In this document: positions 7,860 to 30,941 of the stretch, piece by piece
Layout: each line of letters starts with the position of its first letter
Position numbering within the stretch: position 1 is the stretch's first letter
Assembly: GCA_036504315.1 (NCBI GenBank)
Contig: DASXVI010000122.1
Coordinates: forward strand, 1-31,092
Length of the DNA: 31,092 bases
DNA from: Nitrospirota bacterium
Lineage (GTDB): Bacteria; Nitrospirota; JACRHJ01
Reading direction: 5' to 3'
The notes under the pieces: generated by a model
The model's database searches: none
What the model was told of the DNA's origin: nothing
Seen by the model: the letters and a program-made list of their open reading frames with translations, nothing else
Program-made: the position numbers and the translations under genes

Positions 7860-7878
7860 ATTAGACGCTCCGTCTAAT
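7860..7878 (+). terminator. short hairpin directly after the stop of the 6384..7859 gene
   Basis: The element attagacg-ctc-cgtctaat is an 8-bp perfect stem with a 3-nt loop. It is followed by ttattactt. It is a weak intrinsic terminator candidate. Confidence 0.3.
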
Positions 7879-7884
7879 TATTAC

Positions 7885-7942
7885 TTGACTTAATACAATA
7901 TCTTGTGTTTAATAGTACCTGCATCTACACAATAGAGTAGTT
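7885..7942 (+). promoter_or_regulatory. sigma70-like promoter overlapping two NrdR-box-like palindromes upstream of the RNR gene
   Basis: The -35 element is ttgact at 7885-7890. The spacer is 17 bp. The -10 element is tttaat at 7908-7913. The palindrome atacaatatcttgtgt at 7893-7908 matches about 14 of 16 positions of the NrdR consensus acaCwAtATaTwGtgt, recalled from memory. A weaker copy, acacaatagagtagtt, lies at 7927-7942. A second promoter with a perfect TATAAT at 8041-8046 lies nearer the gene. A GGAGG RBS sits at 8072-8076. Confidence 0.35.
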
Positions 7943-15800: not shown

Positions 15801-16167
15801 TATGGACCTGCATATGTACGGGCCGGGCGGGGGGCACACCTACTACAAGAGCCCGAATATGTACGAGTCTCCCGAGGCTATCGCGGGTGCGCAGTTAGAG
15901 CAGGACTCGAAGGCCAATTTCGGGCCCGAGGTCTTCACGCAGGAGCACGCGGACAAAGGCGCTTATACAATCAAGTCGAATTATTTTTATAGCGGTGGTG
16001 ACGGCAACGCTCACGCGACCGTCACCGTGATATTATACGGAGACAACCCCTCCCGAAGGATAGTCAGGGTGTTTGGTCCACACCTGCAGGTCGACACCAA
16101 GAACGGTGAAGACACCTGGGAGGTCACTAAGTTCAAGATGCCGGAAGGGATTTTCCTGGAGGATTGA
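12826..16167 (+). CDS. giant single-pass envelope protein with a long Gly/Ser/Ala-rich disordered linker and C-terminal Ig-like domains
   Basis: 1113 aa. The start may be the ATG at 12829. A cytoplasmic N-domain with TPR-like helices occupies ~200 aa. One TM helix follows (LSYIIPSAIVHALLFLTIGFL). From residues ~230 to 780 there is a low-complexity acidic/Gly/Ser/Ala-rich region. Two Big/Ig-like beta repeats follow (ILSPTSGKT...ITLDYY and INIISPRDGQ...VNIM). A conserved-looking C-terminal ~130-aa domain (SWDKPHADMDLHMYGPGGGHTYY...YFYSGGDGNAHATVTVILYG) may be YfaP/DUF2135-like. That assignment is from memory and unverified. Confidence 0.55.
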   Translation: MMQEDQENGSETGLKSGANTAPSLVADISPEELYQAGTAHFRHRDYDQARACFEDLLKVCSPEQDSGPYSGSDSGNAPLVPAALHMLARVCHAQNRELDRAEEMLKKAVEQDKEGLTRYLETLGMIYIHQGKYEKAGEVFGYALAEDDGRDRQHSFSLSFYNDLVTKKLKAQHKRLSSNKPDFLDEDKKRFKRRGPLSYIIPSAIVHALLFLTIGFLSMHDIVMQPESKEDFTVVDVQQEEERQMAESPSDEARPVDENPQPQSREDLEANAVPTPANQQRQDAKAGSVAKGGGASMGQAAAGKASESERSGSVGRKSAAAVQGGETKEDLAMKSLGVKGVDLKQHSPEFASSDVDLVRKSLSPASAGSDRSGAKEAKVGGLTDRSATKASVTADGVYIGNTGAKESKWQKERASDIRQGGQADNAPAPNMQEEKKVALNSPSGNRKFETNPEVAARRLDLSSGGPASGGKSAAGPDRFASMDRQAAASAAGKANADFSSTLFGSNKAAAGGKAAGSLGASASSGDTGPSIQSERANVQLPQAGGKNYNFVDGVPVARQLDMGTAGASNGGGAPGQRAGGQGQKFASLDRGAGGAVSPGTAGAAAGSMVGRPGAGYGSAATGSAKQGGSRAVSGGGDSGGTGSGFGGFLGAAVKKASDFVGSVGRSMGSVGGSDSEVKRVKSLSGMGGGTSGSGGPGSGGGTGNGRGGVRLGSGEKSASGGPAGGYQAQAGGVTPSGGKTGVGAGKKMAEGALGVPGQSGDRFASFGKGEIGPSSMEKGTAVGKTVKTARNAIAPAVQILSPTSGKTNKLSQVITGTVSDTRTRKATLTINNESRVISVDRGRFESVVSLAKGRNIVTVMAFDVDGNVGKDNITLDYYEPSAGVPINIISPRDGQVFDVSERSVVSVKGTIGDPQVKKAKLIFNGNPMDIVVNRGYFEQKIALVQEQNTILVEAVSTDGETVSRSSRTKVNIMNAKPKDIMVILSWDKPHADMDLHMYGPGGGHTYYKSPNMYESPEAIAGAQLEQDSKANFGPEVFTQEHADKGAYTIKSNYFYSGGDGNAHATVTVILYGDNPSRRIVRVFGPHLQVDTKNGEDTWEVTKFKMPEGIFLED

Positions 16168-16174
16168 CAGCAAC

Positions 16175-19100
16175 ATGAAAAAGCTCAGCCTATTCTTAGC
16201 AGCTTTGCTGGCGGTATCCGCAGCGGCTATGCCGGCCTTGGCCGAATCGTCCAACGAGATCATGAAGACTGCGGTACAGCTCTACCAGAACGCGGATTAC
16301 GACCTTGCCGCCGACCAGTTCGCAAAGTTCCTTGAGCAGTTCCCGAACGACGCCCAGGCGTCCGACGCGCTGTACGGCCTGTCTGAGGCGCAGTTCGCCA
16401 AGGGCTCGGTCAAGGAAGCGCTCGCGTCTTTCGACAGCCTGCTGGCAAAATTCCCGGACTCGCCCAAGATACCGGAAGCGAAGCTGAGGAGGGCCGACTG
16501 CCTGTACATGCTAAAGGACTACCAGAAAGCCGCCGAGGCATACCAGGGCTTTATCAGCGGATACCCCGACAGCGCGCTCCGCTCCGACGCATATTTCATG
16601 ATGGGCCACTGCTATGTCCGGCTGGTAAACTTCCCGAAGGCCGCCGACGCGTTCAACCAGGTCGCGGCGAAGTTCCCGGACAGCCCGAAGGCCGGAGAGG
16701 CCGCGTTCCTTGCGGGCGAGGCATATTCCCAGGACGGCCAGTTTGACAAGGCGCGCAACTCGTACCAGACAGCGGTTTCCCGCGGGGGAGAAAAATTCGC
16801 AGAGAGGGCGGAGTTTCGCCTCGCCGACGCGGCATTCATGGGCGGACGCTACGAAGAGGCGAAGAACACGCTCAGTTCCTTCCTCCAGAACCACCCCGGC
16901 TCGCCGGACGCTCCTCTTGCAAGGATGGAGCTTGGCGACGTATATATCAAGTCGGGCGACTTTGAGAACGCCATCATCAGCTATGACCTGTTCGTGAGCA
17001 AGTACCCGACGAGCGAGCTGATGCCGGAAGTCGAGTTCAGGGTCGCGGAGGCCTATTACCAGAAGCAGGAATATAAGAAGGCCGTCGAGAAGTATCTTGG
17101 GCTGCTCAACAAATACCCGGACTCCGGCGCACGCGACAAGTACCTCTACGGCCTCGGCTGGTCTTATTACAAGTTAGAGGACTACTCGTCCGCGACCGAC
17201 GCGTTTACCAGGCTTGTGGACATGAGCCCGGACTCCGAGCTTGTCACCGGCTCGCACATGAAGTTGGGCGAGATAAACACGCGCAACAAGAAGTACTCCG
17301 AGGCCGCCGCCTCGTTCAAGCAGGCAATCGCCAGGTCAAAGGACCCGAAGGATTTAAAGACCGCCCGCTACGGGCTTGCCTGGGCATTCTACCAGGCGAA
17401 GATGTTCAAGGAGGCTATCGATCCGCTGCAGGAACTCATCGCCATGAGCCCCGATGAGTCCGAGCTTATCGAGGCCAAATACCTCCTTTCCCGCGCGAAG
17501 CTCTTTGTAGGCGACTTTTTACCCGCTATCAACGGTTTTACCGAGATTGCCGACAAATACAAGGACAACCCGCTCGCTCAGGAGTCCCTGATGGGACTTG
17601 CCGAATCTTATGAGAGAAGGGGCGACGAGCTTTACAAGGCCATCAACGCCTACAAGCGGCTTCTGACCGAATACCCCGACACAAAGCGCAAGGCTGAGGC
17701 GCTCTTCAGCATCGGCAGGAATTATCTCGAGCACGAAAATTACCCGCAGGCGGTCGAGGGTTTCAGGGAACTGTTAAACCGTGTGCCCGATTCCGAATAC
17801 CACGAGCGAGCGTACTTCGGCATCGCCGAGGCGTATTACGGCTCGAAGGATTACGACAAAGCAAAGGAGAATTACGACGCCTATCTTGTCAAGTTTCCGC
17901 AGGGCGCCCTTAAGGACCAGGCGGTCTACGGGCTCGCGTGGTCGCAGATGGGCATGAAGGACTACCAGGACGCCTACACAAACTTCGGCAGGGTGCTTGC
18001 CGGGAATGCTGCCGGCTCTCTCTCGGCGGACTCGATGTTAGAGCAGGGCGAGGCGCTTTATAACCTTGAGAAATACGCAGACGCAGCGAAGGCTTATTCG
18101 GATGTCATTGCAAAGTACCCGACGGCCGAGCCTGCCAAGAAGGCCCATTATGTCCTCGGCTGGGCGCTCCTGAAGCAGGGGAAGAACACCGAGGCGGCCA
18201 CGGAATTCCGTACTTTCTCCGAGGCCAACCCGAAAGACCCGCTCTCGCTCGAAGCCGACTTCCAGAGGGCGCTTGTGCTTGCGCAGGCAGGCCAGTCGGA
18301 ACAGTCAGCCGAGCTTCTGTCAAAGGTGTCCGAGAAAGGCGCCGGAAAGGATGTCGGCACGAGGGCGAAGCTTGAGCTGGCCAAAGTTCTGACCTCCAAA
18401 GGCGACGCGATGAAGGCGCAGGCGCTTCTGGACGAGCTGAAAAAAGGCGGCTCAGGCGGAGTCTCGCAGGAGGCGTCCTTCCAGATAGGCGTGGTGAAGT
18501 TCAACGAGGGCAACTGGGCCGAGGCGAAGAAGGCGTTCGGTGAATACATTGCCGCGGGCGCGGACGGCGAATACGCGGCGCGCGCGCACTATTTCCTCGG
18601 GTTGTCCCTGCTCAACCTCAAAGACCTCGACGGCGGTTCGTCCGAACTTAAGAAGGTGGTCGATTCAGGCCAGCAGGAGCTGCGTCCCGACGCCACTTTC
18701 TGGCTTGCGGACACCGGCTACAACCTCGGCAAGTACCAGGAGGCCCTGGAACTTTATGAAAGCTTTACCTCCCAGTACGGCGCGCACAGGCTGATGCCTG
18801 AGGCCGAATACGGCCGCGCATGGGCGCTGGAGAAGCTCAACCGTACCGATGACGCCAAGGCCGCCTTCAAGGCCATTGCGGTAAAATATCCCGACGGTGC
18901 GCACGCCGCGGACGCATGGTACAAGGTGGGCGAGTACGCTTTCAAGGACAAACGGTATGCGGATGTCGAAACCGCGTTCCAGAGCTTCCTGAAACTCCAG
19001 CCCGAGAGCAAGCTGAAGGCCGACGCGTATTATCAGATGGCCGTTGCGCAGGACGCCCTTGGCAAGTCCGAACCGGCAGCAACTTCGTTCAGGGCTGTAG

Positions 19101-19588
19101 TATCCGCCGGAGGCCCGCTGAAGGCCCCTGCGGCCCTCAAGGCAGGCAAGCTCGAAGAAAAGCTCGGCAGGACCGACAGCGCGGTCGCGCTCTATGATAC
19201 CGCGGCGGCCGACAACGACTACGCGTCCGAGGCGCTGGTGGGCAAGGGCAGGACGCTGATTGCGGCGAAGAGATATCCCGATGCGTCCGCCGCGTTGGAC
19301 AAGGCCCCTGATTACCCGGCGGATGCCGTCGTCCGCGCAGAGGGCTACTGCCTCGCCGGCGATGCGGCCCAGGCCGCAGGGCAGTACAAAGACGCGGTCA
19401 TACGGTATACTAAGGCTACGGTCCTTGGCGACAGCCCGTCAAAGCCCATGGCTATGGTTGGGATTGCGAGGAGCTACGCCGCACTCGGGGACAAGGACAA
19501 GGCCGCAAGCGCTTATAAAAAATTTATTGAGGCCTTCCCGACAAACGAGTTGACGGGGGCCGCTCAGGCGGAGCTTGGAAAGTTATAG
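16175..19588 (+). CDS. secreted giant TPR-repeat protein (YbgF/CpoB-type repeats)
   Basis: The start is probably the ATG at 16175, where the signal peptide MKKLSLFLAALLAVSAAAMPALA begins. The track ORF extends upstream in frame from 16073. About 1137 aa carry 25 or more reiterations of the unit (K/E)YPDSxxxxxAxYxLGxxY with alternating A/Y/L periodicity. This is typical of Tol-Pal YbgF-type TPR repeats. Confidence 0.7.
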   Translation: MKKLSLFLAALLAVSAAAMPALAESSNEIMKTAVQLYQNADYDLAADQFAKFLEQFPNDAQASDALYGLSEAQFAKGSVKEALASFDSLLAKFPDSPKIPEAKLRRADCLYMLKDYQKAAEAYQGFISGYPDSALRSDAYFMMGHCYVRLVNFPKAADAFNQVAAKFPDSPKAGEAAFLAGEAYSQDGQFDKARNSYQTAVSRGGEKFAERAEFRLADAAFMGGRYEEAKNTLSSFLQNHPGSPDAPLARMELGDVYIKSGDFENAIISYDLFVSKYPTSELMPEVEFRVAEAYYQKQEYKKAVEKYLGLLNKYPDSGARDKYLYGLGWSYYKLEDYSSATDAFTRLVDMSPDSELVTGSHMKLGEINTRNKKYSEAAASFKQAIARSKDPKDLKTARYGLAWAFYQAKMFKEAIDPLQELIAMSPDESELIEAKYLLSRAKLFVGDFLPAINGFTEIADKYKDNPLAQESLMGLAESYERRGDELYKAINAYKRLLTEYPDTKRKAEALFSIGRNYLEHENYPQAVEGFRELLNRVPDSEYHERAYFGIAEAYYGSKDYDKAKENYDAYLVKFPQGALKDQAVYGLAWSQMGMKDYQDAYTNFGRVLAGNAAGSLSADSMLEQGEALYNLEKYADAAKAYSDVIAKYPTAEPAKKAHYVLGWALLKQGKNTEAATEFRTFSEANPKDPLSLEADFQRALVLAQAGQSEQSAELLSKVSEKGAGKDVGTRAKLELAKVLTSKGDAMKAQALLDELKKGGSGGVSQEASFQIGVVKFNEGNWAEAKKAFGEYIAAGADGEYAARAHYFLGLSLLNLKDLDGGSSELKKVVDSGQQELRPDATFWLADTGYNLGKYQEALELYESFTSQYGAHRLMPEAEYGRAWALEKLNRTDDAKAAFKAIAVKYPDGAHAADAWYKVGEYAFKDKRYADVETAFQSFLKLQPESKLKADAYYQMAVAQDALGKSEPAATSFRAVVSAGGPLKAPAALKAGKLEEKLGRTDSAVALYDTAAADNDYASEALVGKGRTLIAAKRYPDASAALDKAPDYPADAVVRAEGYCLAGDAAQAAGQYKDAVIRYTKATVLGDSPSKPMAMVGIARSYAALGDKDKAASAYKKFIEAFPTNELTGAAQAELGKL

Positions 19589-19630
19589 GACAGGTTGTAC
19601 AAGGGAGAGTAACGGGGCGGGCAGAGCGGT

Positions 19631-20629
19631 ATGAAAGGAGAAAGCTTTATGAGGTGGCTGACGGTCGGTATGATAATCGTCTTGTCCGTGTGCGGCCAGT
19701 CGTTTGCCGAGACGGAGGGGTTGCCCAGGCCGGGGATGAGGCAGGCGGCAATCACGGAGTCCCTGAAGGACCAGGACCCCGTTGTAAGACAGACCGCGGC
19801 AAGGACGCTTGGTGAAGCTCACGAGAAATCCGCTGTCCCGGCGCTGTCGGAGGCTGCGGCAAAAGACCCGGACGAGACTGTGCGGCTTACCGCTATAGGT
19901 GCGCTGTCGGTAATAGGCGACAGGTCCGCAATGCCGGCCTATGTCAAGGCCCTGAAGGACGAAGCCGAGAAGGTGCGCCAGAGCGCCGCCGAGGCGTTGT
20001 CGGGCATGTGGGACGAGTCCGCGCACCAGGCGCTTATAGAGGCCCTGAGGACGGATATATCGCCCAAGGTAAGGCGCTCGGCCGCACAGGCCCTCGGAAA
20101 CCCCGGTATAATGGGACGCTACCAGGCGCACCACTGGGAACAGGACAAGCCGGACAGCGAAGGCTCGCTGATGGACGCGCTCAAAAAAGACGAGAGCCCG
20201 GAGGTAAGGGCGATGTCCGCGTCCATGCTGGCCAATTTCAAGACGGGCCGCTCGCTCGACCCGCTGATAGACGCACTTGCCGACAAGAACGCATCGGTGC
20301 GCGCGTCGGCCGCGGAGGCGCTCGGCGTCCTTGACAAGCCGCGCTCTGTCGAGAAGCTGCTCGATGTGCTCTATTTTGAGAAGGACGACTATGTGGTGCT
20401 CAATGCGCTCAAGTCGCTCAAATACGCAGTAGACCCTCGCCTTGCGGGCGCAGCTATCGGCGCGCTCCGTTCGTCGAGCCAGAGAGTCAGGTGGCAGGCG
20501 ATAGATGTCCTTGAAACGCTCAGGACGCAGGATGCCGTCGAGCCGCTGAAGTCGCTTTCCGAAGACAAGTACGAGTCCGACGGCATCAAGAACAAGGCCC
20601 GCGAGGCGCTCCAGCTTCTCGGGCAGTAA
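19631..20629 (+). CDS. secreted HEAT-repeat (PBS-lyase type) protein
   Basis: It has an N-terminal signal peptide (MRWLTVGMIIVLSVCGQSFA). An alternative start is ATG 19649. Repeats of the form DxxVRxxAAxALGxxxxxxAVpaLxxAL number 6 or more. These are the PBS-lyase HEAT-like signature. Confidence 0.6.
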   Translation: MKGESFMRWLTVGMIIVLSVCGQSFAETEGLPRPGMRQAAITESLKDQDPVVRQTAARTLGEAHEKSAVPALSEAAAKDPDETVRLTAIGALSVIGDRSAMPAYVKALKDEAEKVRQSAAEALSGMWDESAHQALIEALRTDISPKVRRSAAQALGNPGIMGRYQAHHWEQDKPDSEGSLMDALKKDESPEVRAMSASMLANFKTGRSLDPLIDALADKNASVRASAAEALGVLDKPRSVEKLLDVLYFEKDDYVVLNALKSLKYAVDPRLAGAAIGALRSSSQRVRWQAIDVLETLRTQDAVEPLKSLSEDKYESDGIKNKAREALQLLGQ

Positions 20630-20640
20630 GGATAAAAAAG

Positions 20641-21783
20641 ATGGCCGCAGGCAACCCCGTCTCAGTAGAAAAACTAAAGGGAATATTTTCCGCCAACCTC
20701 GGCTCCCGGCCGGGAGAGAGGACGCTCGTGTTCACCGACACGGTGCGGCCCGACGAGGTAATAGGCGAGGTGGACAGGGGCCGGCGCGAAGGCCTTGTCC
20801 TGGTTGCCCGGGCCGCGGCCCAGGCCGCAAGAGAGCTCGGGCTGGATGTCGTGTACCACGAATACGAGGCATTGACAACCCACGGCTCGGAGCCGCGCGA
20901 GGAGCTTTGGAGGCTCGCCTTCGGCGATGCCGCGGTGGACGAGTTTAAGGCTTCGGGCGTGCTGGACAGGATAATAGCGAAAACGGCGACGGACGACGAT
21001 AAAAAAAATGCGGCGGATATAACGGCAAGGCACGCCGCCGGGGCTGTTCGCGCGGTCGTCGCGCTCCCGAACAACTCGACGAGCCATACCCGGTTTCGGG
21101 ACCTGCTCACTTCGGCGTCGGGCGTCAGGTACGCCAGCATGCCGATGTTCGAGGCTGATATGCTGGACGGCTCGATGTGCGTGGACTGGTCTGAGGTAGA
21201 GGCCCGCTCGAAGAAGATTGCCGCGGCGATCGAGGGCGCGGACGCGGCCCGGGTCACGACGGCGCTCGGCACGGACATTACCTTCAGCATCGCGGGCAGG
21301 CCGCCGCAGTTGGACACGGGCAACCTCAGGCAGCCGGGCTCGTTCAGCAACCTTCCGGCGGGCGAGGTATACCTTGCTCCGGTCGAGGGCACAGGCAACG
21401 GCGTGCTGGTGCTTCAGTGGGCCCCTAGCAGGAAGCTTGTCTCTCTTGTACGGGTGACCGTCAAGGACGGGATGGCGGCAGAGGTCGAAGGCGACGAGCC
21501 GTTCGCGGCGGAGTTCACCGCAAGCCTCGACAGGGCACCGATGAACCGCAACCTGGCCGAGCTGGGCATAGGCACGAACGACCGGGCTTCGAAGCCCGAC
21601 AATGTGCTCGAGTCCGAGAAGATACTCGGGACCATACACCTCGCCTTCGGAGACAACACATCTATGGGAGGCAAGGTCAGCACTCCGTTCCACCAGGATT
21701 TCGTATTCTTCGGGCCGACCCTCGCGGTAAGGAAATCCGGCCGGTGGACCAACGTAATAGAAAATGGCGGGCAGGTTGTCTGA
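20641..21783 (+). CDS. aminopeptidase, M29 (AmpS/PepS aminopeptidase T-like) family
   Basis: 380 aa. It has the motifs NLPAGEVYLAPVEG, AELGIGTN and GTIHLAFGDN, then HQDFVFFGP. These give the E/E/H/H/D metal-ligand arrangement characteristic of M29 thermophilic metalloproteases. Confidence 0.55.
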   Translation: MAAGNPVSVEKLKGIFSANLGSRPGERTLVFTDTVRPDEVIGEVDRGRREGLVLVARAAAQAARELGLDVVYHEYEALTTHGSEPREELWRLAFGDAAVDEFKASGVLDRIIAKTATDDDKKNAADITARHAAGAVRAVVALPNNSTSHTRFRDLLTSASGVRYASMPMFEADMLDGSMCVDWSEVEARSKKIAAAIEGADAARVTTALGTDITFSIAGRPPQLDTGNLRQPGSFSNLPAGEVYLAPVEGTGNGVLVLQWAPSRKLVSLVRVTVKDGMAAEVEGDEPFAAEFTASLDRAPMNRNLAELGIGTNDRASKPDNVLESEKILGTIHLAFGDNTSMGGKVSTPFHQDFVFFGPTLAVRKSGRWTNVIENGGQVV

Positions 21784-21788
21784 GGCTG

Positions 21789-24488
21789 ATGAACTTTAAT
21801 AAAAAACGGCCCATCACCATACTTAATTTCGAAGTGTTCCCGCTCGCGGTCCTGGTAGGGGTGTTCCTGCTCTCAGCGTTTGCTCTCTTTTATCATTATT
21901 ACGCGACCAGGCAGCAGCTCAAGAACGATTTTTCCCAGGCACGGGTTCTGACCGCCCGTTATACGGCGCGGGGGATTTCGGAGTATCTCAGCCGGGAACA
22001 GGCCGAGGTATTGAGTATTGCCGGCAACCTGAGGCTGTACGGCCTGTCAAAGGGGGAACAGGCGCTCGAGACAGCCTACAAATCCCACCATCGCTCACAG
22101 AAACTCCACTCGTTTTTTGTAATGGACGCCAAGGGCAGGTTCCTGTTCTCCTATCCCGAGACGCTTATCGACCGCTATATGCAGGACCTCTCCGCCGAGC
22201 CTTATTTTACAGAGGCAAAAGCCGGCAGGTTATCCTTCTCTCCCGCAATTGAAGACAACAAGGGTGGCTGGAGCGTATACCTTTCGGCCCCGGTAGTTTC
22301 GGGGGACGGGACGCTTTCGGCAGTCGTCTCGGAGAAGATAGATGTCCGCTCCATCGAGCAGGAGTTCATAGCCGACCTGGATGCAGGCCCGCAGACGCAT
22401 GCCTTCCTCGTAGACGAGAACGGCCGGACGCTGGCCAACCAGACAAGCGAAAGCCTGTATCAGATAAAGGCTTCCGGCGCAATGCTTAAAGAAATGCTCA
22501 GAGGGAAAGAAGGCGTTTTCGAGACGGATGCAACAGACGGGGACGGTAAAGAAATGACATTTATCTCCCCGATGATGTTCGGGGGGCGGCCATGGTCTGT
22601 AGGACTGGTCAGCAGTATGGACGAGGTTTACAGCGAAGCGGCTGAAAACCTGCAGCGGACAATAGTGATAATATCGCTGATGACGCTTGCCTTCGCGTGG
22701 AGCCTGGTATCGGTCGCAAGGTCCAGCCGTTTCAAGGCGATGGTAAACGAGCGCACCCGTTATTCCGAGCAACTTTTAATGCGCAATAAAGAGCTTGCTA
22801 CGCTCAATGAGCTTGCGCGGGTTTTCGGCGGCAGCGCCAGCCTGGACAAAATGCTCGAACAGGCGGTACAGGTAATAAAGGACGGTTTTGGAGCGAAGGG
22901 TGTCGCCGTGCGGCTTGCGTCACCTCCGCAAGGGGACCTTGTGTTGAAGGCGCATACCGGCATCCCTGAAGCCCTGGCAGGCCGGCAGGTATGCACCGAG
23001 GTCCGCCGCTGTGTCTGCGGCAAGGTCATGCAGGGCGGCGAGGCAGTATTTTATAACAAAAAGGAGCTTGACGCGCTCCCTGACATGCCTTGCGGCGGGA
23101 AATGGGAGCATAATCTGGCGAGGATACCCTTGCAGGCGAAAAATAAGGCGCTGGGCGTCCTGTATATAACCGGGCTGGGGGAATACGAGTTCGCGGGCGA
23201 TAGGGACAAGTTTATTCTGGCCATCGGCAACCAGCTTGCGGGCGGGCTTGAGAACTTCCTCCAGATGGAAGATACCAAGAGGCATGCAGCCAGGGCCTCT
23301 GCGTTGTTCCACACGGCCCAGGCCCTGACAAAGAGCCTGGATTTGGACGAACTGCTGCGTATCATCATGAAAGAAGCTGCCGCCCTTCTGAAGGTAAGGC
23401 GCTGCCTGCTTTTCCTATACAGCGAAGAGCAGAACAGGGTCGATTGCAGGGTTGCCCTCGGGTTTGAAAATTTCAGTTCCGAGAGCCTCAGCTTCAGCCC
23501 GTCGGGAATATTCTGGGAGGCGATGGGAGAAGGCACGGTCAAGGTGGTGGACCTCGGGCAGCGCACCCATAACCTCCCGAATAAGTTCCGCGAGATGGTG
23601 GACCTTTATAACTTTATCCTTGTGCCCCTTACCTCGAAAGGTAAGGTGCTCGGGTTCCTGGTGCTGGAGGCCGGGAAGAACCAGGCCGCCATAGACGACC
23701 TGAAACTCGTCATGGGGTTTGCCAACCAGGCTGCGGTGGCTATCGAGACTTCGTCGTTTTATATAAGGACTGTCGAAAAATACAATGTCGACCTCCAGCA
23801 GCTCTCCAACAGGATACTCGAGGCGCAGGAGGAGGAGAGAAAGAGGATTTCCAGGGACCTGCACGATGAACTGGGACAGGTACTCACCGCGATAAAGATT
23901 AACCTCGATATGCTGAGGTCTGAGCTTCCGCAGGACGCGGAGCAGCCGAGGACGAGGGTCAGGGACACCGTCGAGATGGCGGTATCCGCGCTCGACAGCG
24001 TCCGCAGGCTTTCGTTTGAACTGCGGCCCTCGATGCTCGACGACCTGGGGCTCAGCACCGTAATCAGCAAACTTGTCTCGGACTTCAGGAAGCGGTCCGG
24101 CATAAATGTCGAGTATTCCGAAGAGGGTATAGACGAAAGGCTCGACCCGCAGTTTGAGGTAGGGCTTTACAGGGTGGTCCAGGAGGCTTTCACTAATATC
24201 CTTAAACACGCAGAGGCGAAGAACGTGTTTGTAACCCTTGTCAAAGTCCCGGAACAAGGTATAGTGAACTTGAAAATCGAGGACGACGGCAAGGGGTTCG
24301 ATATGGCGGACCCCGATGGGACTAGCCCAAAAGGGTTCGGCCTGCTCGGGATAAGGGAAAGGGTTGTGCTGATGGGCGGCAATTTCAGGATTATTTCGAG
24401 AAAAGGGGCTGGGACGAAGCTTTTAGTCGATATACCGATGGCGAAAGGAGAACGAGATGGGGGAGATGTTGAAAATACTGCTGGTTGA
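21789..24488 (+). CDS. sensor histidine kinase: TM, Cache-like periplasmic domain, TM, two GAF domains, HisKA_3 and HATPase_c
   Basis: The start is probably the ATG at 21789. The track start at 21744 overlaps the previous gene. TM helices flank a ~270-aa periplasmic domain. Two GAF-like segments lie at ~residues 330-500 and 520-680. The H-box RKRISRDLHDELGQVLTAIKINLDM is of HisKA_3 (NarX/DegS) type. The ATP-binding N, G1 and G2 boxes are present (EAFTNILKHA, DDGKGF, GFGLLGIRER). Confidence 0.8.
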   Translation: MNFNKKRPITILNFEVFPLAVLVGVFLLSAFALFYHYYATRQQLKNDFSQARVLTARYTARGISEYLSREQAEVLSIAGNLRLYGLSKGEQALETAYKSHHRSQKLHSFFVMDAKGRFLFSYPETLIDRYMQDLSAEPYFTEAKAGRLSFSPAIEDNKGGWSVYLSAPVVSGDGTLSAVVSEKIDVRSIEQEFIADLDAGPQTHAFLVDENGRTLANQTSESLYQIKASGAMLKEMLRGKEGVFETDATDGDGKEMTFISPMMFGGRPWSVGLVSSMDEVYSEAAENLQRTIVIISLMTLAFAWSLVSVARSSRFKAMVNERTRYSEQLLMRNKELATLNELARVFGGSASLDKMLEQAVQVIKDGFGAKGVAVRLASPPQGDLVLKAHTGIPEALAGRQVCTEVRRCVCGKVMQGGEAVFYNKKELDALPDMPCGGKWEHNLARIPLQAKNKALGVLYITGLGEYEFAGDRDKFILAIGNQLAGGLENFLQMEDTKRHAARASALFHTAQALTKSLDLDELLRIIMKEAAALLKVRRCLLFLYSEEQNRVDCRVALGFENFSSESLSFSPSGIFWEAMGEGTVKVVDLGQRTHNLPNKFREMVDLYNFILVPLTSKGKVLGFLVLEAGKNQAAIDDLKLVMGFANQAAVAIETSSFYIRTVEKYNVDLQQLSNRILEAQEEERKRISRDLHDELGQVLTAIKINLDMLRSELPQDAEQPRTRVRDTVEMAVSALDSVRRLSFELRPSMLDDLGLSTVISKLVSDFRKRSGINVEYSEEGIDERLDPQFEVGLYRVVQEAFTNILKHAEAKNVFVTLVKVPEQGIVNLKIEDDGKGFDMADPDGTSPKGFGLLGIRERVVLMGGNFRIISRKGAGTKLLVDIPMAKGERDGGDVENTAG

Positions 24489-25116
24489 CGACCATACTAT
24501 CGTAAGGCAGGGGCTCCGTGCGCTGCTTGAGTCCCAGGAAGGCTTCCAGGTCGTCGGAGAGGCAGACAACGGCAGGGATGCCGTCAAGAAGGCCCAGGAA
24601 CTCCAGCCGGATGTTGTAATAATGGATATCGCCATGCCGATTTTGAACGGCCTCGAAGCGACCCGCCAGATAAAGAAAATAATGCCGGAGGTCAAGATTG
24701 TGGCGCTCACCATGTATAACGACGAGGAGTATGTTTTTCAGATACTCAAGTCAGGCGCATCCGGGTATCTGATAAAGGAGACGGCCGCAAACGAACTGAT
24801 AACCGCGATCAACTCGGTCAAAGGCGGCAACCCTTTCTTTTCGCCGCTTATCTCAAGGAAAATAATGGAGAGCTATCTCCGTGAAGACAGTGAAAAGAAG
24901 GCAGAAGGGGATAAGCTCACGAACCGCGAGAAGGAAGTGCTCCAGCTTATCGCGGAGGGCTATACTAACAATGAGATAGGCAATTTAATGGGTATCAGCG
25001 TCAAAACGGTGGAGACCCACAGGGCGCATATAATGAGCAAGCTCGACATACATGATATGGCTGGACTGATAAAGTATGCGATAAAAAAGGGACTTGTCAT
25101 ACTCGATAACAAATAG
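24457..25116 (+). CDS. response regulator, NarL/LuxR family (REC + HTH_LuxR)
   Basis: 219 aa. The receiver has LLVDDH and D(54)-like MDIAMP, then ALTMY and GYLIKE. The C-terminal LuxR HTH is LTNREKEVLQLIAEGYTNNEIGNLMGISVKTVETHR. It overlaps the kinase 3' end by 32 nt, suggesting coupling. Confidence 0.85.
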   Translation: MGEMLKILLVDDHTIVRQGLRALLESQEGFQVVGEADNGRDAVKKAQELQPDVVIMDIAMPILNGLEATRQIKKIMPEVKIVALTMYNDEEYVFQILKSGASGYLIKETAANELITAINSVKGGNPFFSPLISRKIMESYLREDSEKKAEGDKLTNREKEVLQLIAEGYTNNEIGNLMGISVKTVETHRAHIMSKLDIHDMAGLIKYAIKKGLVILDNK

Positions 25117-25210
25117 ACCCGTCCCGGAAAGCGTGATTGAGCATCGGTGAGCGCATATGCTCATGGGCGCAGGCCCTCAATTGCGCAAAAACAATCTTCC
25201 GCGAATAAAA

Positions 25211-25246
25211 ACAGCCCCCAAGCGCTTTTTGGGGGCTGTTTTTTGT
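25211..25246 (+). terminator. rho-independent terminator after the two-component operon
   Basis: The stem acagcccccaa/ttgggggctgt is 11 bp with a gcgcttt loop. A tttttt run follows. Confidence 0.7.
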
Positions 25247-25555
25247 TTCTGTATCCATTATTTTTTAAAAAATCGCAACGGCCAATCTAAAAGTTATCCC
25301 ATCAATTAATAAAGATTTAGACCATGCCCTATTAGCCTGCCGACATCAAAATTTCACGCCAATAATTCCTAAGTAAGACCAAAGGTACGGTTGTTGCACT
25401 TATAAGTCATTGTATTATAAGGGAAATCCCTTACATGGCAGTAAGGTCTTTATTAGGAATATATACATTAACCACCTGATGCGAATGAAATGGCTTATTC
25501 TTTTAAACATTTGAATTTTATAAGTTTAACACTTAGGAGAAAAGGCGGTGCGGAT

Positions 25556-27547
25556 ATGAAAAAAACGCTTCTGACGCTGGTGGGAACCCTGACGTTCCTG
25601 GCGGCGGCCTATGGCCTCGCCGGTGCGACAGCCTCTAACAACCCACCGCATACGGACTATCGGCCGGGCTATGGCACCAGCTGCGCCGCCGGCAACGCGG
25701 CATGTCATACCGTGAGCCAGGGAACCTTCCTGCCGGAGACTCTGACAACCAGCGACTCGGCAAACTGGGCCAATTTCTGCGCTTCGTGCCATAACTCGGG
25801 CGGCGAGGCACACGACAAGTCGGTCGGCTCGGCATCGACAGTCCAATATAATAATGTAACAGGTGGTCTGGTCTCGGGCAGCTACTCGGGCAACTCGCAC
25901 AGCTGGAACGGCAGCATTAAAGCCGGGGGCACGAGGGTTCCGACCGCAGCGGGCTACAATGGAGTGTTTTATATGCCCGGCAATAAAGTCGTCTGTACCA
26001 CTTGTCACAAGGGCGTGCAGAAGATTGTCGGCATACAGAATATAGACTGGATACAGGCCACGGATTCCGGCGACCATATAAATTACACCATACTCGGTTA
26101 CTCGACAACGGACCAGCACCTGTCCCAGTATGTAAAGGTGTACAGGGCCGCCGCTACGACCGCCCGCCCGACGAACAGCCGCACCAAAAAGGACTACCTT
26201 GTCAGCCCGGCCGAATATTCCTACGATTACACGACGGCCAAGGTGACCTTCACGGCAGCGCAGTCCGCAGCCAGCGTCATTTATGTGGATATCCCGCAGC
26301 CGTATTACAGGGTTGACAACAAGGCCAACGCGGCCTGCTTCGACTGCCATCTCGACCGTGTCGATACCGCGGCTTCGCATGCCCCCGGCACCGGCGTAAA
26401 GGACGGCCACCCGGTCAACCTGACCTACGGCAAGAATTTCGGCCTGAACAATACCTTGAAGCCGTCCGCATCTTCGGCGGTCTATCTCGAAGGCGGAAAG
26501 GTCATCTGCACCTCCTGCCATGATGTCCATAACTCGGCATCCAAAGAAGGCAACGCGCTCCGCGAGGCCGACGGCTCGACCCTCTGCACCGACTGCCACA
26601 AGACCAGGTTCGACGGGTATTCCAGTTCCGATTCCGTGAACAACCATTTTGGCGCAAAGCATGCCACGGCGACCGTCTGCCTGGAGTGCCATACGACCCA
26701 CGGCAGCAACAATATAATGCTGATCAGGAATACAATTAACGGCAAAACCATAAACTTCCAGAATTTCAGCGGCGCGAACAGCTTCAGCAACGGCTCCGGC
26801 AACGGGGTCTGCGCAGCCTGCCACATGGCCACCAACTACCACAAGGCCGACGGCACTGGCGCCTCGCATAATGCAAACCTCAACTGCACACAGTGCCACA
26901 GCCACGCAAGCGGCTTCAAGCCGAACGGCGACTGCACGAGTTGCCACGACTTGACCAGCGATAAAATCCCGTCCGGCTGGGTTGACGCCGGCGACCACAA
27001 GTCGCACCTGGCACGCGGCGCGGCCTGCACCGACTGCCACCCGGCGGTTTCCGGCGCGCATCCGGAAGGCCTTGCCTCCGCGAAGATTATCCTCTCCGGC
27101 TGGAGCGACGGCGGCACGACCGGCAAGATTAGCACAAACGACGACACCTGCACCAACATCGGATGCCATTCCGGCACAAGGACCTGGAAGACCGCGTCCG
27201 GCTGCGACGGCTGCCACTCGTATCCGGGCTCGGCGACTAACCCCTGGACTGCCGGCAACGGCCACCTGGTCACCGACGATGTGTTCGCGGCCCATATGAT
27301 GGGGACCGGCTATAACGCGGCGACCGACACCTATGCGGCCATGGTTGCCGACCCGACCAGGTGCGGCAAGTGCCACCCGAACGTCCCGTCCAACCACCAG
27401 AACGGCACGGTCAACGTTGCTGGCAACGGGCTTTCGGCCTGCGGCGGCGGCAACTTCACGATTTCGGTAACGGCATCCGGCTCCAATGTCACCTGCAACA
27501 ATGTCAGGTGTCACGGAGCAGGGAAGACAACTCCGAACTGGTATTAA
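25556..27547 (+). CDS. secreted multiheme c-type cytochrome (about 12 CXXCH plus variant CX4CH/CX6CH motifs)
   Basis: The start is ATG 25556, 5 nt after GGTG/AGGAG-like RBS elements. The track ORF begins upstream at 25490. The signal peptide is MKKTLLTLVGTLTFLAAAYGLAGA. Haem-binding motifs are CASCH, CTTCH, CFDCH, CTSCH, CTDCH, CLECH, CAACH, CTQCH, CTSCH, CTDCH, CDGCH and CGKCH. Variant motifs are CTNIGCH, CNNVRCH and CAAGNAACH. The paired CX4CH..CXXCH module CTNIGCHSGTRTWKTASGCDGCH is of the type described for Geobacter cytochromes. The composition is Thr/Ser/Asn/Gly-rich. The C-terminus is ...CNNVRCHGAGKTTPNWY. Confidence 0.8.
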   Translation: MKKTLLTLVGTLTFLAAAYGLAGATASNNPPHTDYRPGYGTSCAAGNAACHTVSQGTFLPETLTTSDSANWANFCASCHNSGGEAHDKSVGSASTVQYNNVTGGLVSGSYSGNSHSWNGSIKAGGTRVPTAAGYNGVFYMPGNKVVCTTCHKGVQKIVGIQNIDWIQATDSGDHINYTILGYSTTDQHLSQYVKVYRAAATTARPTNSRTKKDYLVSPAEYSYDYTTAKVTFTAAQSAASVIYVDIPQPYYRVDNKANAACFDCHLDRVDTAASHAPGTGVKDGHPVNLTYGKNFGLNNTLKPSASSAVYLEGGKVICTSCHDVHNSASKEGNALREADGSTLCTDCHKTRFDGYSSSDSVNNHFGAKHATATVCLECHTTHGSNNIMLIRNTINGKTINFQNFSGANSFSNGSGNGVCAACHMATNYHKADGTGASHNANLNCTQCHSHASGFKPNGDCTSCHDLTSDKIPSGWVDAGDHKSHLARGAACTDCHPAVSGAHPEGLASAKIILSGWSDGGTTGKISTNDDTCTNIGCHSGTRTWKTASGCDGCHSYPGSATNPWTAGNGHLVTDDVFAAHMMGTGYNAATDTYAAMVADPTRCGKCHPNVPSNHQNGTVNVAGNGLSACGGGNFTISVTASGSNVTCNNVRCHGAGKTTPNWY

Positions 27548-27640
27548 GGCAAGGTTATTAACTTTAGATGTACCGTAGAAGGACTTCTTAAGGAGTTTGG
27601 GAAGTAAGTTTTAATCGGGTACTTTATCAGGAGGGATGAA

Positions 27641-29134
27641 ATGGGGAAATGTAAGACTTTGTTAATGGCGGTAATGGCCTTCGCGCTGACCCTGGGTCTC
27701 GCGTCGATGGCATCTGCCGCGACGATCACCTGCGGCGGTTGCCACGGTACTGCCCCGAACGGCAATCCGGTCAATGGCGACAACTGCACTAACACGGCGC
27801 GCGGCCTGCACGGCATGCATGTCAACTACTCTTCGCTCACTTACAAGAAGACGGTCGCCAGCAACGGCAAGTGCGCATATTGCCACGCCGCGGTTTCGGA
27901 CGCCAAGGGTATCGCGTCCAGGACCCACAACAACAACTTCATTAACGTAACCGGCAACACGAACGCCGTTGGCGCTCTGAATACGCTGACGATGTCGTAC
28001 AACTCGGCCTCGAAGACCTGCACCAACGTCTGCCACAAGAACAAGGACAACGGCTCGGCAAAGTGGGGCAACTACACCGCCACCACGGTCGGCAACATCA
28101 AGCTCTCCTGCCGTTCCTGCCACGACGATATCGTCGACAAGGCTGGCCTTTCCGGCAAGCACAGCACGCACCTGCTCGCCAACACCACGACGGCCGCAGG
28201 CGTCCTGATGAGCTCCGCTAACAACGCGGGCTGCGTTGCCTGCCACCCGAATGTCGTTACCGACATATTCTCCGGCGGTAAAGCCGACGACGGCACGAAG
28301 AAGGCATACCCGCACGCCACCGACGGTACAAACGTCGTTGCCGACAATGCGGTCCTCAACGGCCAGATCACCGGCTCCACAAAGGCCGGCCTGAACACGA
28401 CCTGCACCAACACCTGCCATCCGAGGTCTGCCGCCATAACCTGGAACACGGCTTGGGCGCAGGGCGCGGGCACTGGCTGCGATATGTGCCACTACTGGGC
28501 GGCCGCCACGCTCGATACCAGCAACACCGGTACCGGCTCGCTGTCCTCCGGCCACAACTTCCACTTCAAGAGCCCGAATAACTTTGCTTGCACGAACTGC
28601 CATCCGGACCATGGCACCACCTATGATTACCATGGCGCCAAGCTCCCGGCACAGGCATACAACGTCAAAGTCGTAAGGGCCGGCATGACATATACCGCCG
28701 CCACGAAGACCTGCTCCAACACCGGCCTCGGCTGCCACGGCTCGTACACCACCGAGGCATGGAGCCTGGGCGTACCGACCGGTTGCGCGGCTTGCCATAC
28801 CTATCCGGGTGTAGCCGGCAGGGATTGGGCGACGGTAGGCAATGGCCACCTCGTCAGATATGCCGCTTCGGCTGCTACCAACACGCACCTGCGTGACAAT
28901 GCAAGCTACAACAACCTGACCGACACCTACGCATCAGTCACGGCCAGCACCTCCAAGTGCGGTCTTTGCCACCCGGCTTCAGGCGTCCATTACAATGGCA
29001 CGACCGATGTTGCAGGCAGCGGCAATGGCCAGTGCGGCGGAAACTTCACCGTTACTGTCACCACTTCCGGCTCGAACGTCACCTGCGGGTCCGTCAAGTG
29101 CCACAACGGCAAGACGACCCCGAACTGGTGGTAG
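27641..29134 (+). CDS. secreted multiheme c-type cytochrome, paralog of the neighbouring cytochromes
   Basis: An AGGAGGG RBS lies 5 nt upstream. The signal peptide is MGKCKTLLMAVMAFALTLGLASMASA. The CXXCH motifs are CGGCH, CAYCH, CRSCH, CVACH, CDMCH, CTNCH, CAACH and CGLCH. Variant motifs are CTNVCH, CTNTCH, CSNTGLGCH and CGSVKCH. It shares the block KGIAS(R/K)THNNN...TCTN(V/A)CHKNK with the third cytochrome. It shares the C-terminal CGSVKCHNGKTTPNWW with the first. Confidence 0.8.
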   Translation: MGKCKTLLMAVMAFALTLGLASMASAATITCGGCHGTAPNGNPVNGDNCTNTARGLHGMHVNYSSLTYKKTVASNGKCAYCHAAVSDAKGIASRTHNNNFINVTGNTNAVGALNTLTMSYNSASKTCTNVCHKNKDNGSAKWGNYTATTVGNIKLSCRSCHDDIVDKAGLSGKHSTHLLANTTTAAGVLMSSANNAGCVACHPNVVTDIFSGGKADDGTKKAYPHATDGTNVVADNAVLNGQITGSTKAGLNTTCTNTCHPRSAAITWNTAWAQGAGTGCDMCHYWAAATLDTSNTGTGSLSSGHNFHFKSPNNFACTNCHPDHGTTYDYHGAKLPAQAYNVKVVRAGMTYTAATKTCSNTGLGCHGSYTTEAWSLGVPTGCAACHTYPGVAGRDWATVGNGHLVRYAASAATNTHLRDNASYNNLTDTYASVTASTSKCGLCHPASGVHYNGTTDVAGSGNGQCGGNFTVTVTTSGSNVTCGSVKCHNGKTTPNWW

Positions 29135-29146
29135 TAATCTGACAGT

Positions 29147-29190
29147 CTTTCGGGTCCCGCCTTTGGGCGGGACCCGAAAGGGCTGTGTTT
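29147..29190 (+). terminator. strong GC-rich hairpin terminator after the second cytochrome gene
   Basis: The arm ctttcgggtcccgcc at 29147-29161 pairs with ggcgggacccgaaag at 29166-29180. The stem is a perfect 15 bp with a tttg loop. The sequence ggctgtgtttct follows. Confidence 0.6.
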
Positions 29191-29296
29191 CTCGCAGGAT
29201 GCGCAAACAAAATTGCGCACCTTTCCAGAAATACAGAATAAATACTCAAACATTTATTAATTTTTGAATATTACGGTTATCTACGGGAGGACGAAA

Positions 29297-30901
29297 ATGG
29301 GATACATAAAAAAGTCTGACAACGCAGGTTGGGGGATGCCTTCGGGGATAATTGCCCTCATCCTTTGGGTGGTGATGTTCGGGGCGGTAAATGGACCAGC
29401 CACGGCATATGCCGCCGTAATATCCTGCGGGCAGTGCCACAACAACCCGCCCGGCAATTATGAAGGCTGCAAGCCGATGCTGAAGAACCACTCGTCCCAC
29501 TCGACGGGCGCGGACCTCACGACCTGCGACCGTTGTCATCCTACTGTCCCGGGGCCGAAGGGTATCGCGTCCAAGACGCACAACAACAATATTACAAATA
29601 TCACCTCGGTTGCCGCTCCCGGCATGAGGTACAATACAACGACCGCGACCTGCACGAACGCCTGCCACAAGAACAAGAATTCGACTTGGGGTACCGCTAC
29701 CAACGACTGCAACATATGCCACTTCAGGAACGGCGCCCTCGGGAATGTTGCCATGTCCGGCCTGCATGTTGACGCTACCAGGTCATGGAAACACTTCAGC
29801 TCGATCGTAAGGGTGAACGGCGCCCAGATTGGTTGCAACACCTGCCACAAGAGCGCGGACACGGATATAACCACCTACAAGTCCCACATACAGACCCCCG
29901 GCTTCATTCAGAAGGGCGACATGTCGCAGGCCCATACCTATGTAGCCGTGACGACCATCGGCTATACAAAGGGCGCGACCCCGGTCCTGGGCACCTGCGC
30001 CAAGTCCTGCCATTACAACGGCAACGACCCGTTCGGCAATTACACGATCTACTTCAAGCCGGGCCAGAAGAAGCGCTTCGGCACATACCAGACTGCGGCA
30101 TGGGGCGACACCGACTTGAAGTGCAACGAATGCCACAGCACCCCGAGTCAGGAAGCCACCTTCGGCAATATAACCAGCTTCCTGAGCAAGAACGCGAACC
30201 TGCGCCACTCGAACCACATGTTCCGCTACAAACTTAACCCGTGGAACTTCCAGAGCCAGGACAGGAACATATACTGCGACGACTGCCACAGGACGCCGGA
30301 CATCAATGCGACACGCGGCTTCCAGCACCATTCTACAATCGGCGGCAGCGGCAACGGGGTAATCTCGCTTCCGGTGCAGTCTCAGAACTCGAAGGTTAAT
30401 TTGCAGTGGAGGAGCTCGACGGGACGCGACGGCATCAGCCCGGCTGTCTTCAACCAGGCAGACAACAACAGCTGCTCCAATGTCTACTGCCACACTTTCA
30501 TGGTCAGGGGCGAGTGGACTGAAGAGGCCTGCAATGCATGCCACGGCAAGAAAGACGGCGTCAATGTAGGGTCCGGCGCGCCTGGCTATGCCAACTTCAC
30601 GACTAACTACTCGACATTCGAGGACTATGCAGGCGGCGGCGGCGCGCATTACACGCACGTTACCAAGCGCGGTTATGCCTGCCGGGCCTGCCACTATGAC
30701 GGCGGCGGCGACGGCAACCCGGCCAACCATCACAATGTGAGCCCGAGGACCGTCTCCCGCGCCAATGTCAATGTTGGCGTGGAGCCGAAGTACTGGTTCA
30801 ACAACAAGACCTCTATATACAGCCTGACCACAAGAAGCTGCAGCGATGTCAGTTGCCACTACGGCGCTTCACAGAACTGGGACTGCGCACCGCTCCATTA
30901 A
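29297..30901 (+). CDS. membrane-anchored or secreted multiheme c-type cytochrome, third paralog
   Basis: The start is probably ATG 29297 with a GGGAGG RBS. The track ORF begins at 29264. An N-terminal hydrophobic segment is IIALILWVVMFGAV. The CXXCH motifs are CGQCH, CDRCH, CNICH, CNTCH, CNECH, CDDCH, CNACH and CRACH. Variant motifs are CTNACH, CAKSCH, CSNVYCH and CSDVSCH. The paired module is CSNVYCHTFMVRGEWTEEACNACH. Confidence 0.8.
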   Translation: MGYIKKSDNAGWGMPSGIIALILWVVMFGAVNGPATAYAAVISCGQCHNNPPGNYEGCKPMLKNHSSHSTGADLTTCDRCHPTVPGPKGIASKTHNNNITNITSVAAPGMRYNTTTATCTNACHKNKNSTWGTATNDCNICHFRNGALGNVAMSGLHVDATRSWKHFSSIVRVNGAQIGCNTCHKSADTDITTYKSHIQTPGFIQKGDMSQAHTYVAVTTIGYTKGATPVLGTCAKSCHYNGNDPFGNYTIYFKPGQKKRFGTYQTAAWGDTDLKCNECHSTPSQEATFGNITSFLSKNANLRHSNHMFRYKLNPWNFQSQDRNIYCDDCHRTPDINATRGFQHHSTIGGSGNGVISLPVQSQNSKVNLQWRSSTGRDGISPAVFNQADNNSCSNVYCHTFMVRGEWTEEACNACHGKKDGVNVGSGAPGYANFTTNYSTFEDYAGGGGAHYTHVTKRGYACRACHYDGGGDGNPANHHNVSPRTVSRANVNVGVEPKYWFNNKTSIYSLTTRSCSDVSCHYGASQNWDCAPLH

Positions 30902-30916
30902 TGATGACTAGCCAGA

Positions 30917-30941
30917 CCGGGAGGCGGCCAGCGCCTCCCGG
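30917..30941 (+). terminator. perfect 10-bp GC hairpin after the third cytochrome gene
   Basis: The arms are ccgggaggcg and cgcctcccgg with a gccag loop. No U-run follows. It may be a terminator or RNA-stability element. Confidence 0.35.

Follow-up and report, generated by a model that had tools for sequence, protein, structure and literature searches.

What keeps the extreme C-termini of neighbouring cytochromes nearly identical when the proteins are otherwise diverged? The question is raised by three tandem open reading frames (ORFs) on the plus strand of a metagenome-assembled genome of a Nitrospirota bacterium (assembly GCA_036504315.1), which encode multihaem cytochromes and are labelled here cyt1, cyt2 and cyt3. 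They lie on contig DASXVI010000122.1, and the whole stretch analyzed, positions 1 to 31,092 (31,092 nucleotides), is referred to below as the window. A sequence-only reading had drawn attention to the tails of cyt1 and cyt2, each built on a CX4CH motif and ending with aromatic residues, and had suspected a sorting, assembly or subunit-interface signal in them rather than a catalytic element. Judged from the sequences, the tail is instead no special appendage but the final occurrence of a motif that is also found internally in each of the proteins. With a probability of roughly 0.75, it represents the C-terminal end of the last triheme unit, most likely the last haem attachment site, and is kept for cofactor binding and folding.

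The C-terminal tails and the triheme repeat

The C-termini of cyt1 and cyt2, including the lead-in of the GSNVTC type, proved to be nearly identical exactly as had been written, and both tails lie between positions 27000 and 30901 (Table 1). The description of the two paralogues as otherwise diverged holds as well: cyt1 and cyt2 can be aligned over the last ~190 amino acids (aa) only, with 44% identity, and cyt2 and cyt3 over the first ~200 residues only, with 34% identity. The likeness of the cyt1 and cyt2 tails exceeds what chance would give, the last 15-codon blocks reaching 71-73% identity in protein.

Within each protein the tail belongs to a series. The repeated element is a triheme unit with the order CxxCH, two His, CxxCH, His, beta-hairpin, CXnCH (n=3-7), 6-8 residues and Trp. 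The units were delimited by cutting just before each CxxCH that comes after CXnCH...Trp and are 90-135 aa long. In ten units aligned from cyt1, cyt2 and cyt3, the three haem motifs (CxxCH, CxxCH and CXnCH) are invariant, and the Trp is present in 90%. Following its signal peptide, cyt2 is made up of four such units (aa 29-143, 155-269, 278-375 and 380-497), with 12 haem motifs (CXnCH) and 12 invariant His outside the motifs, and its tail (aa 482-496) is the fourth copy of the segment running from CXnCH to Trp. A signal peptide, four triheme units, 12 motifs and 12 invariant non-motif His are likewise found in cyt3. The longer chain of cyt1, with 14 CxxCH/CX4CH motifs plus a C-x6-CH near the N-terminus, ends with two triheme units. 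The balance between motifs and His is a property of the families as well: in seven full-length homologues of cyt2, the invariant His number exactly 12 within the motifs and 12 outside them, with three per unit, and the same 12:12 balance was found in 26 orthologues of cyt3.

The same arrangement was observed family-wide, where 803 internal copies of the motif were counted vs 174 terminal ones. A Trp follows within 14 residues in 520 of the 803 internal CX3-7CH motifs, most often at +7/+8, and in 515 of these 520 the next 30 residues contain a CxxCH. In comparison, the count for CxxCH motifs, taken as a control, is 250 of 2325.

Moreover, aligning homologues extended the conservation of the tail far beyond the locus. 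Homologues keep the tail, and at five further loci (L001, L004, L005, L008 and L009) each paralogue's tail is retained in its own orthologue. Nearly all complete C-termini among 41 cyt2 homologues have the form C[SG]N[VA]xCH[SFNG]G[KR]xTP[NV]W followed by 0-2 residues; in an alignment of 34 sequences, with a mean column identity of 32%, residues C482, C487, H488, T493, P494 and W496 of cyt2 are invariant. More distant relatives were collected by searching 1.84 billion representatives with a profile built from the last 152 residues, which yielded 153 proteins, 138 of them new, with a length of 64-4091 aa and 1 to about 100 haem motifs each. In 100 of the 138 new representatives, the chain ends with C-x4-CH, 6-8 residues, Trp and then 0-8 residues; as the profile includes the tail, these matches are biased to the presence of the motif, not to its position at the chain end. 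Of the 100 distant tails, 82 contain the element [TS]PxW, and most of the remaining representatives stop a few residues past the next CxxCH. Named members of the distant clusters are annotated as 'CxxxxCH/CxxCH domain-containing protein' and come from Desulfuromonadia and Desulfobacteraceae. Overall, the comparison of sequences supports strong purifying selection on the tail.

Regarding cyt3, the sequence-only reading was correct in that the CX4CH is kept. The divergence claimed for the part after it is limited: the Trp is preserved (CH-x6-W), and about 30 orthologues (43-67% identity) share the protein's own ending, NWDCxPLH, in the conserved form C-x4-CH-[YF]G-x-S-x-x-W-D-C-x-P-[LVA]-[HY], with an invariant Cys after the Trp. 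Because the Trp is kept and the ending is conserved in orthologues, the cyt3 tail should be seen as a conserved variant, not a decayed one. Six distant relatives (P0063, P0069, P0072, P0077, P0151 and P0166) end with TPxWSCPGGE, resembling the WDCxP of cyt3; this subgroup has one unpaired Cys two residues past the Trp and no further free Cys.

The spacing of the CXnCH motifs is variable. Among close homologues it ranges at homologous positions from n=3 to 7 (CQNSCH, CTSVQCH, CSNTGLGCH, CSGTGASGCH), and in the window it is exemplified by C358-x6-CH of cyt2 (28712-28738) and C65-x6-CH of cyt1 (25682-25708). The N-terminal motif of cyt1-type proteins, PPHxDYR...C-x(3-8)-CH...FLP, varies likewise. 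Such variability is unusual for haem attachment, and one may ask how the maturation machinery accommodates it.

A putative terminal haem site

The most probable explanation of the tail is that its CX4CH covalently binds the last haem of the chain, whereby the His of the motif would act as the proximal ligand. The [TS]PxW segment would then pack against this terminal haem, as it would over the third haem of each internal unit; in its internal copies it runs on to the CxxCH with which the following unit begins. The chain would thus stop at a natural unit boundary, and the tail would not be truncated. Every motif, including the terminal one, would carry a bis-His haem, a ligation suggested by the 12:12 count in the sequences, in which individual His are not assigned to individual haems. 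In Desulfovibrio cytochrome c3 a CX4CH motif binds haem, and there, too, the last haem motif (haem IV) adjoins the C-terminus, one residue away from it. Counts of haem sites in the literature, too, routinely include the CX4CH motif (PMC10734462, PMC5566968, PMC11492766).

The three proteins are new members of a known, curated and structurally unstudied cytochrome family. The whole-protein scores against TIGR01904 are 41.6 bits for cyt2 and 61.3 bits for cyt3, both past the cutoff of 27 bits, and 22.9 bits for cyt1, which is under it; the last 60 aa of cyt1 alone give 22.4 bits at profile positions 1-45 of 73, the match stopping at the C-terminus. Against PF14522, all three exceed the gathering threshold of 24.8 bits (53.9, 32.9 and 30.6 bits for cyt1, cyt2 and cyt3, respectively). 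TIGR01904 / PF09698 (GSu_C4xC__C2xCH), the CxxxxCH/CxxCH domain, was first defined in Geobacter sulfurreducens. Its module of CX4CH, ~7 residues, Trp and then CxxCH is also present in these proteins, where the CxxxxCH and the following CxxCH fall within one domain at residues 554-576 of cyt1, 358-386 of cyt2 and 404-427 of cyt3. The internal copies match the model from about position 8-16 on to 61-69. In comparison, the 60-residue tails match positions 1-45 of 73 (cyt1 and cyt2) or 10-45 (cyt3), all stopping at the chain end, so that the tail alone is a partial domain consisting of the first half only. The matches are confined to the first 45 positions because the model straddles the junction between two units and the chain stops at a unit boundary. 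What differs from the curated description is that the model hides both the triheme repeat ending at the Trp and the termination of most of its members on the first half of the domain. In the literature on CX4CH, CXXXXCH, TIGR01904 and PF09698, we found only motif counting or mentions in lists, with the structure of the module and the C-terminal half-copy undescribed.

A row of small domains is also known from the class III cytochromes c3/c7 and their polymers, whose domains are triheme or tetrahaem and bis-His (PF14522, PF02085; PpcA and the dodecahaem GSU1996 with four c7-type domains). The present units differ from those of the c7 type by a greater length (vs about 70 aa), a beta-hairpin insert before the third motif, the variable CXnCH and the conserved Trp. 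The register of the triheme unit relative to c7 is uncertain.

Several points weigh against the terminal haem site. The presence of haem at the terminal CX4CH of these particular proteins is itself deduced from the motif. Searches of the PDB with each protein, with the C-terminal profile and with the unit profile returned no sequence-related solved structure. The AlphaFold2 models were of low confidence, with a predicted local distance difference test score (pLDDT) of 45 for full-length cyt2 (34 homologues) and 56.7 for the C-terminal 153 aa (76 sequences), and a Foldseek comparison of the low-confidence 153-aa model with the PDB gave nothing with E below 6. Since the models have low confidence and Foldseek gave no matches, we can only infer the packing role of the TPxW segment. 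Furthermore, a haem site at the end does not account for so many members stopping right after the Trp instead of past the next CxxCH, and it leaves the conserved extra Cys near the tail unexplained.

The C-terminal profile also matched designer Kelch 'SAKe' proteins in the PDB. These matches, with apparently significant whole-sequence E-values, were rejected as spurious: no single stretch was significant, and the artefact arose because a conserved segment of the last unit, NTHL..A.YN..TDTYA.V, matched weakly and was scored in all six identical repeats of the six-fold designs. With the unit profile, only generic CxxCH...CxxCH matches were obtained in the PDB (reaction-centre cytochromes, UndA, NrfA, and PpcA at E=1.7).

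A possible contact between chain ends and other alternatives

The extra Cys bear on a different explanation, which we regard as unlikely though worth consideration, namely that the two ends of the chain complement each other as a single CxxxxCH/CxxCH junction, with the second half at the start and the first half at the end. The haem-1 segment at the N-terminus would dock, as at an internal junction, on the C-terminal tail unit and be clasped to it by a disulfide, Cys49-Cys465 in cyt2 and Cys71-Cys541 in cyt3. As a result, the 12-haem chain would be closed into a loop, or subunits or neighbouring paralogues would be joined head-to-tail. The residues Cys49 (N-site; 14-42 residues past the first CxxCH in the cyt2 family) and Cys465 (C-site) are the only non-motif Cys of mature cyt2, and they covary: both are present in 24 sequences of the cyt2 family, neither in 4, and the C-site alone in 1 (Fisher p=2e-4, uncorrected for relatedness, with the losses representing only about two independent events). 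An analogous pair exists in the cyt3 family, with the same N-site and the tail Cys at -4; in mature cyt3, too, no other Cys lies outside the motifs. In the clade of L008 and L009, the Cys of cyt1 and cyt2 have been lost together. The mature N-terminus begins ~4 residues ahead of the first CxxCH; when it was joined in silico to the tail, one contiguous TIGR01904 match over profile positions 1-65 was obtained (27.6, 36.6 and 26.1 bits), above the tail alone (14.8-22.4 bits), and the N-terminus alone gave no match. There is no distinct capping sequence at either end, and the order cyt1-cyt2-cyt3 is kept at the five further loci. Such features suggest that the N-terminal haem segment may contact the C-terminal unit, either within one chain or between chains.

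However, the joined ends of any protein composed of whole units recreate the junction, whatever its three-dimensional structure, and relatives ending with a full module likewise have a short N-terminal stretch ahead of the first CxxCH. The 'orphan' N-terminal CxxCH shows no clean correlation with truncated tails, being found in full-module-ending proteins as well. Some Cys are partnerless, such as the lone one at -33 in cyt1-type proteins and the tail Cys of three related cyt3 orthologues that have no N-site, and most of the distant family members are without any extra Cys. Locus L009 contradicts a strict chain between the proteins. Such a disulfide daisy chain, running from the cyt1 C-site to the cyt2 N-site, from the cyt2 C-site to the cyt3 N-site and from the cyt3 tail to a giant protein encoded behind it, fits the window, L001, L005 and L008 and was rejected for its exceptions: at L009 the cyt3 has the N-site Cys and the preceding protein has no C-site Cys, and at L004 the cyt1 has a local Cys pair. 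Overall, the Cys data leave exceptions under both schemes, be the contact purely within one chain or purely between chains.

A C-terminal sorting or secretion signal, similar to the beta-signal of outer-membrane proteins (OMPs) or to a CTERM-type sorting domain, is very improbable. The proteins are exported, as their signal peptides are readable in the sequences, and cyt1 and cyt2 share with the OMPs an aromatic last residue, placed in a tail at the extreme C-terminus. Nevertheless, the same CXnCH-x6-8-W segment is internal in each protein, occurring three times inside cyt2, and the tail has no hydrophobic, transmembrane or basic segment. The OMP-like terminal aromatic residue put forward by the sequence-only reading is not conserved family-wide: the 100 distant tails, with 0-8 variable residues after the Trp, end with Y30/W19/E13/P10/Q7/L7/N6 and others, so only about half of them have an aromatic last residue. 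Instead of alternating hydrophobic residues, cyt2 has N, T and K at positions -3, -5 and -7, and the proteins belong to the cytochromes rather than the beta-barrels. When the last 60 aa were scanned with NCBIfam at E<=10, no sorting domains (CTERM-type, LPXTG, T9SS) were found, TIGR01904 being the sole match; the tail shows none of the features of the checked signals.

Scarcely more can be said for the other role that had been envisaged, in which the His of the tail, or the final one of cyt3, is a distal ligand of the haem of a neighbouring subunit. Inter-subunit His-haem ligation is known from cytochrome nanowires, as in the OmcS/OmcE filaments, which are multihaem wires; the present proteins have no end caps, and an end-to-end contact is conceivable given the Cys covariation. 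On the other hand, the PDB chain searches revealed no sequence relation to OmcS/OmcE, and His488 is expected to be the proximal ligand of its own haem because it is part of the CX4CH attachment motif. Besides, the 12 motifs are already matched by 12 invariant non-motif His, and P0189, P0211 and P0213 have another residue, or none, in place of the terminal His of cyt3.

Finally, a recent duplication of the tandem genes, or gene conversion between them, can practically be dismissed as the source of the shared tail. The paralogues are adjacent, and conservation is highest in their last unit (58% identity of cyt1 and cyt2 in the unit alignment). Yet in a codon-by-codon comparison their last two 15-codon blocks have 71-73% protein identity with only ~70% DNA identity, and third positions of identical amino acids are 55-60% identical, a level also seen across the remainder of the shared region. 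The 3' flanks have no relation to each other and are not near-identical as a very recent copy would have had them, and orthologues at other loci keep each paralogue's own tail.

The locus and its place in the family

The coordinates of the genes, repeat copies, Cys sites and flanking elements are collected in Table 1.

Table 1. Features of the cytochrome locus, with positions in the window.
Feature	Position	Strand	Remarks
dCache-GAF-GAF-HisKA_3 histidine kinase	21744-24488		upstream of the cytochromes
NarL/LuxR-type response regulator	24457-25116		32-base overlap with the kinase; directly upstream of the cytochromes
Strong terminator-like hairpin	25207-25243		between regulator and cyt1
cyt1	25490-27547	+	ORF of 685 aa, multihaem c-type cytochrome; end ...VTASGSNVTCNNVRCHGAGKTTPNWY, also given as ...TASGSNVTCNNVRCHGAGKTTPNWY
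cyt1 internal copy CTNIGCHSGTRTW	27149-27187	+	aa 554-566; then C572xxCH
cyt1 last triheme unit	27197-27544	+	aa 570-685: C572xxCH, C625xxCH, lone C651, beta-hairpin, C669x4CH, TTPNW684, Y
cyt1 lone Cys651	27440-27442	+	C-site equivalent
cyt1 tail CNNVRCHGAGKTTPNWY	27494-27544	+	
cyt2	27641-29134	+	ORF of 497 aa; end ...VTTSGSNVTCGSVKCHNGKTTPNWW, also given as ...TTSGSNVTCGSVKCHNGKTTPNWW
cyt2 first haem motif, C31GGCH35	27731-27745	+	~4 residues past the inferred signal-peptidase site (ASA / ATITC, cut at the slash)
cyt2 Cys49 (N-site)	27785-27787	+	
cyt2 internal copy, unit 1 CTNVCHKNKDNGSAKW	28019-28066	+	CTNVCH..KW, aa 127-142
cyt2 internal copy, unit 2 CTNTCHPRSAAITW	28403-28444	+	CTNTCH..TW, aa 255-268
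cyt2 internal copy, unit 3 CSNTGLGCHGSYTTEAW	28712-28762	+	CSNTGLGCH..AW, aa 358-374; then C382AACH; 32.4 bits to TIGR01904
cyt2 Cys465 (C-site)	29033-29035	+	about 32 residues from the end; covaries with Cys49
cyt2 tail CGSVKCHNGKTTPNWW	29084-29131	+	
Terminator-like hairpin	29146-29181	+	16-bp stem; between cyt2 and cyt3
cyt3	29264-30901	+	ORF of 545 aa; end ...CSDVSCHYGASQNWDCAPLH
cyt3 Cys71 (N-site)	29474-29476	+	
cyt3 internal copy, unit 1 CTNACHKNKNSTW	29651-29689	+	aa 130-142
cyt3 internal copy, unit 3 CSNVYCHTFMVRGEW	30473-30514	+	aa 404-417; then CNACH; 34.6 bits to TIGR01904
cyt3 variant tail CSDVSCHYGASQNWDCAPLH	30839-30898	+	C, C, H, G, S, W, C, P invariant in 26 orthologues
cyt3 Cys541	30884-30886	+	inside the tail, -4

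Two of the ORFs have mechanical starts that probably lie too far upstream. The true start of cyt1 is probably the ATG at 25556 (MKKTLL..., 663 aa, with a Sec signal peptide), and a database protein of 663 aa (P0039, 'MAG TPA: cytochrome c3 family protein [Nitrospirota bacterium]') is identical to cyt1. For cyt3 it is probably the ATG at 29297, which matches the MGY... start of orthologues. The hairpin between cyt2 and cyt3 points to separate transcription of cyt1-cyt2 and cyt3, or else to attenuated readthrough.

A profile search of genome contigs yielded no loci beyond three of Nitrospirota and one of Trichloromonas. The order regulator, cyt1, cyt2, cyt3 recurs in L001, L004, L005 and L008; on the short contig of L009, the regulator was not seen. 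In L008 and L009 a second cyt2-like cytochrome is inserted between cyt1 and cyt3, and the genes inserted after cyt1 in L008 include an extra ORF of 133 aa (7498-7899), a predicted lipoprotein with an LLAGC lipobox. In L001 (13544-19582) and L008 (11950-20613), cyt3 is followed by a surface-type cytochrome of 2012-2887 aa. The N-terminal repeats of this giant protein are Cys-rich and Ig/fn3-like, its C-terminal part is of the cytochrome kind, and its end, ...(A)CH-x20-30-GGWNNKTPW, is another TPW-ending tail, with a single-Cys 'ACH'. The window itself ends 190 bp past cyt3, with a GC-rich hairpin without a T run at 30917-30941; since it stops at a ribosome-binding-site-like GGAGG, a fourth gene after cyt3 has probably been cut off.

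Further upstream (12826-21783), there are genes for giant TPR proteins of 1113 and 1171 aa (ORF overlap 16073-16167), a HEAT-repeat protein and an M29/NicX-like protein. Other loci of Nitrospirota show them in synteny with the cytochrome cluster (L001 1-6549, L008 1-2195), and they may belong to the same system as the cytochromes.

With the tail read as a terminal haem site, the finding is largely ordinary: the tail is where a repeat unit ends in a cytochrome family that is curated and structurally uncharacterized. The repeat of this family can be re-framed as a self-balanced triheme unit ending at the Trp, and most members, from Nitrospirota to Desulfuromonadia and with 1 to about 100 haem motifs, stop exactly at this residue. 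Should the contact between the chain ends be true, the haem wire would either loop or run through cyt1, cyt2 and cyt3 and then into the giant surface cytochrome, which would be a new mode of assembly from uncapped repeat proteins and would bear on the long electron conduits in uncultivated iron- or mineral-respiring bacteria.

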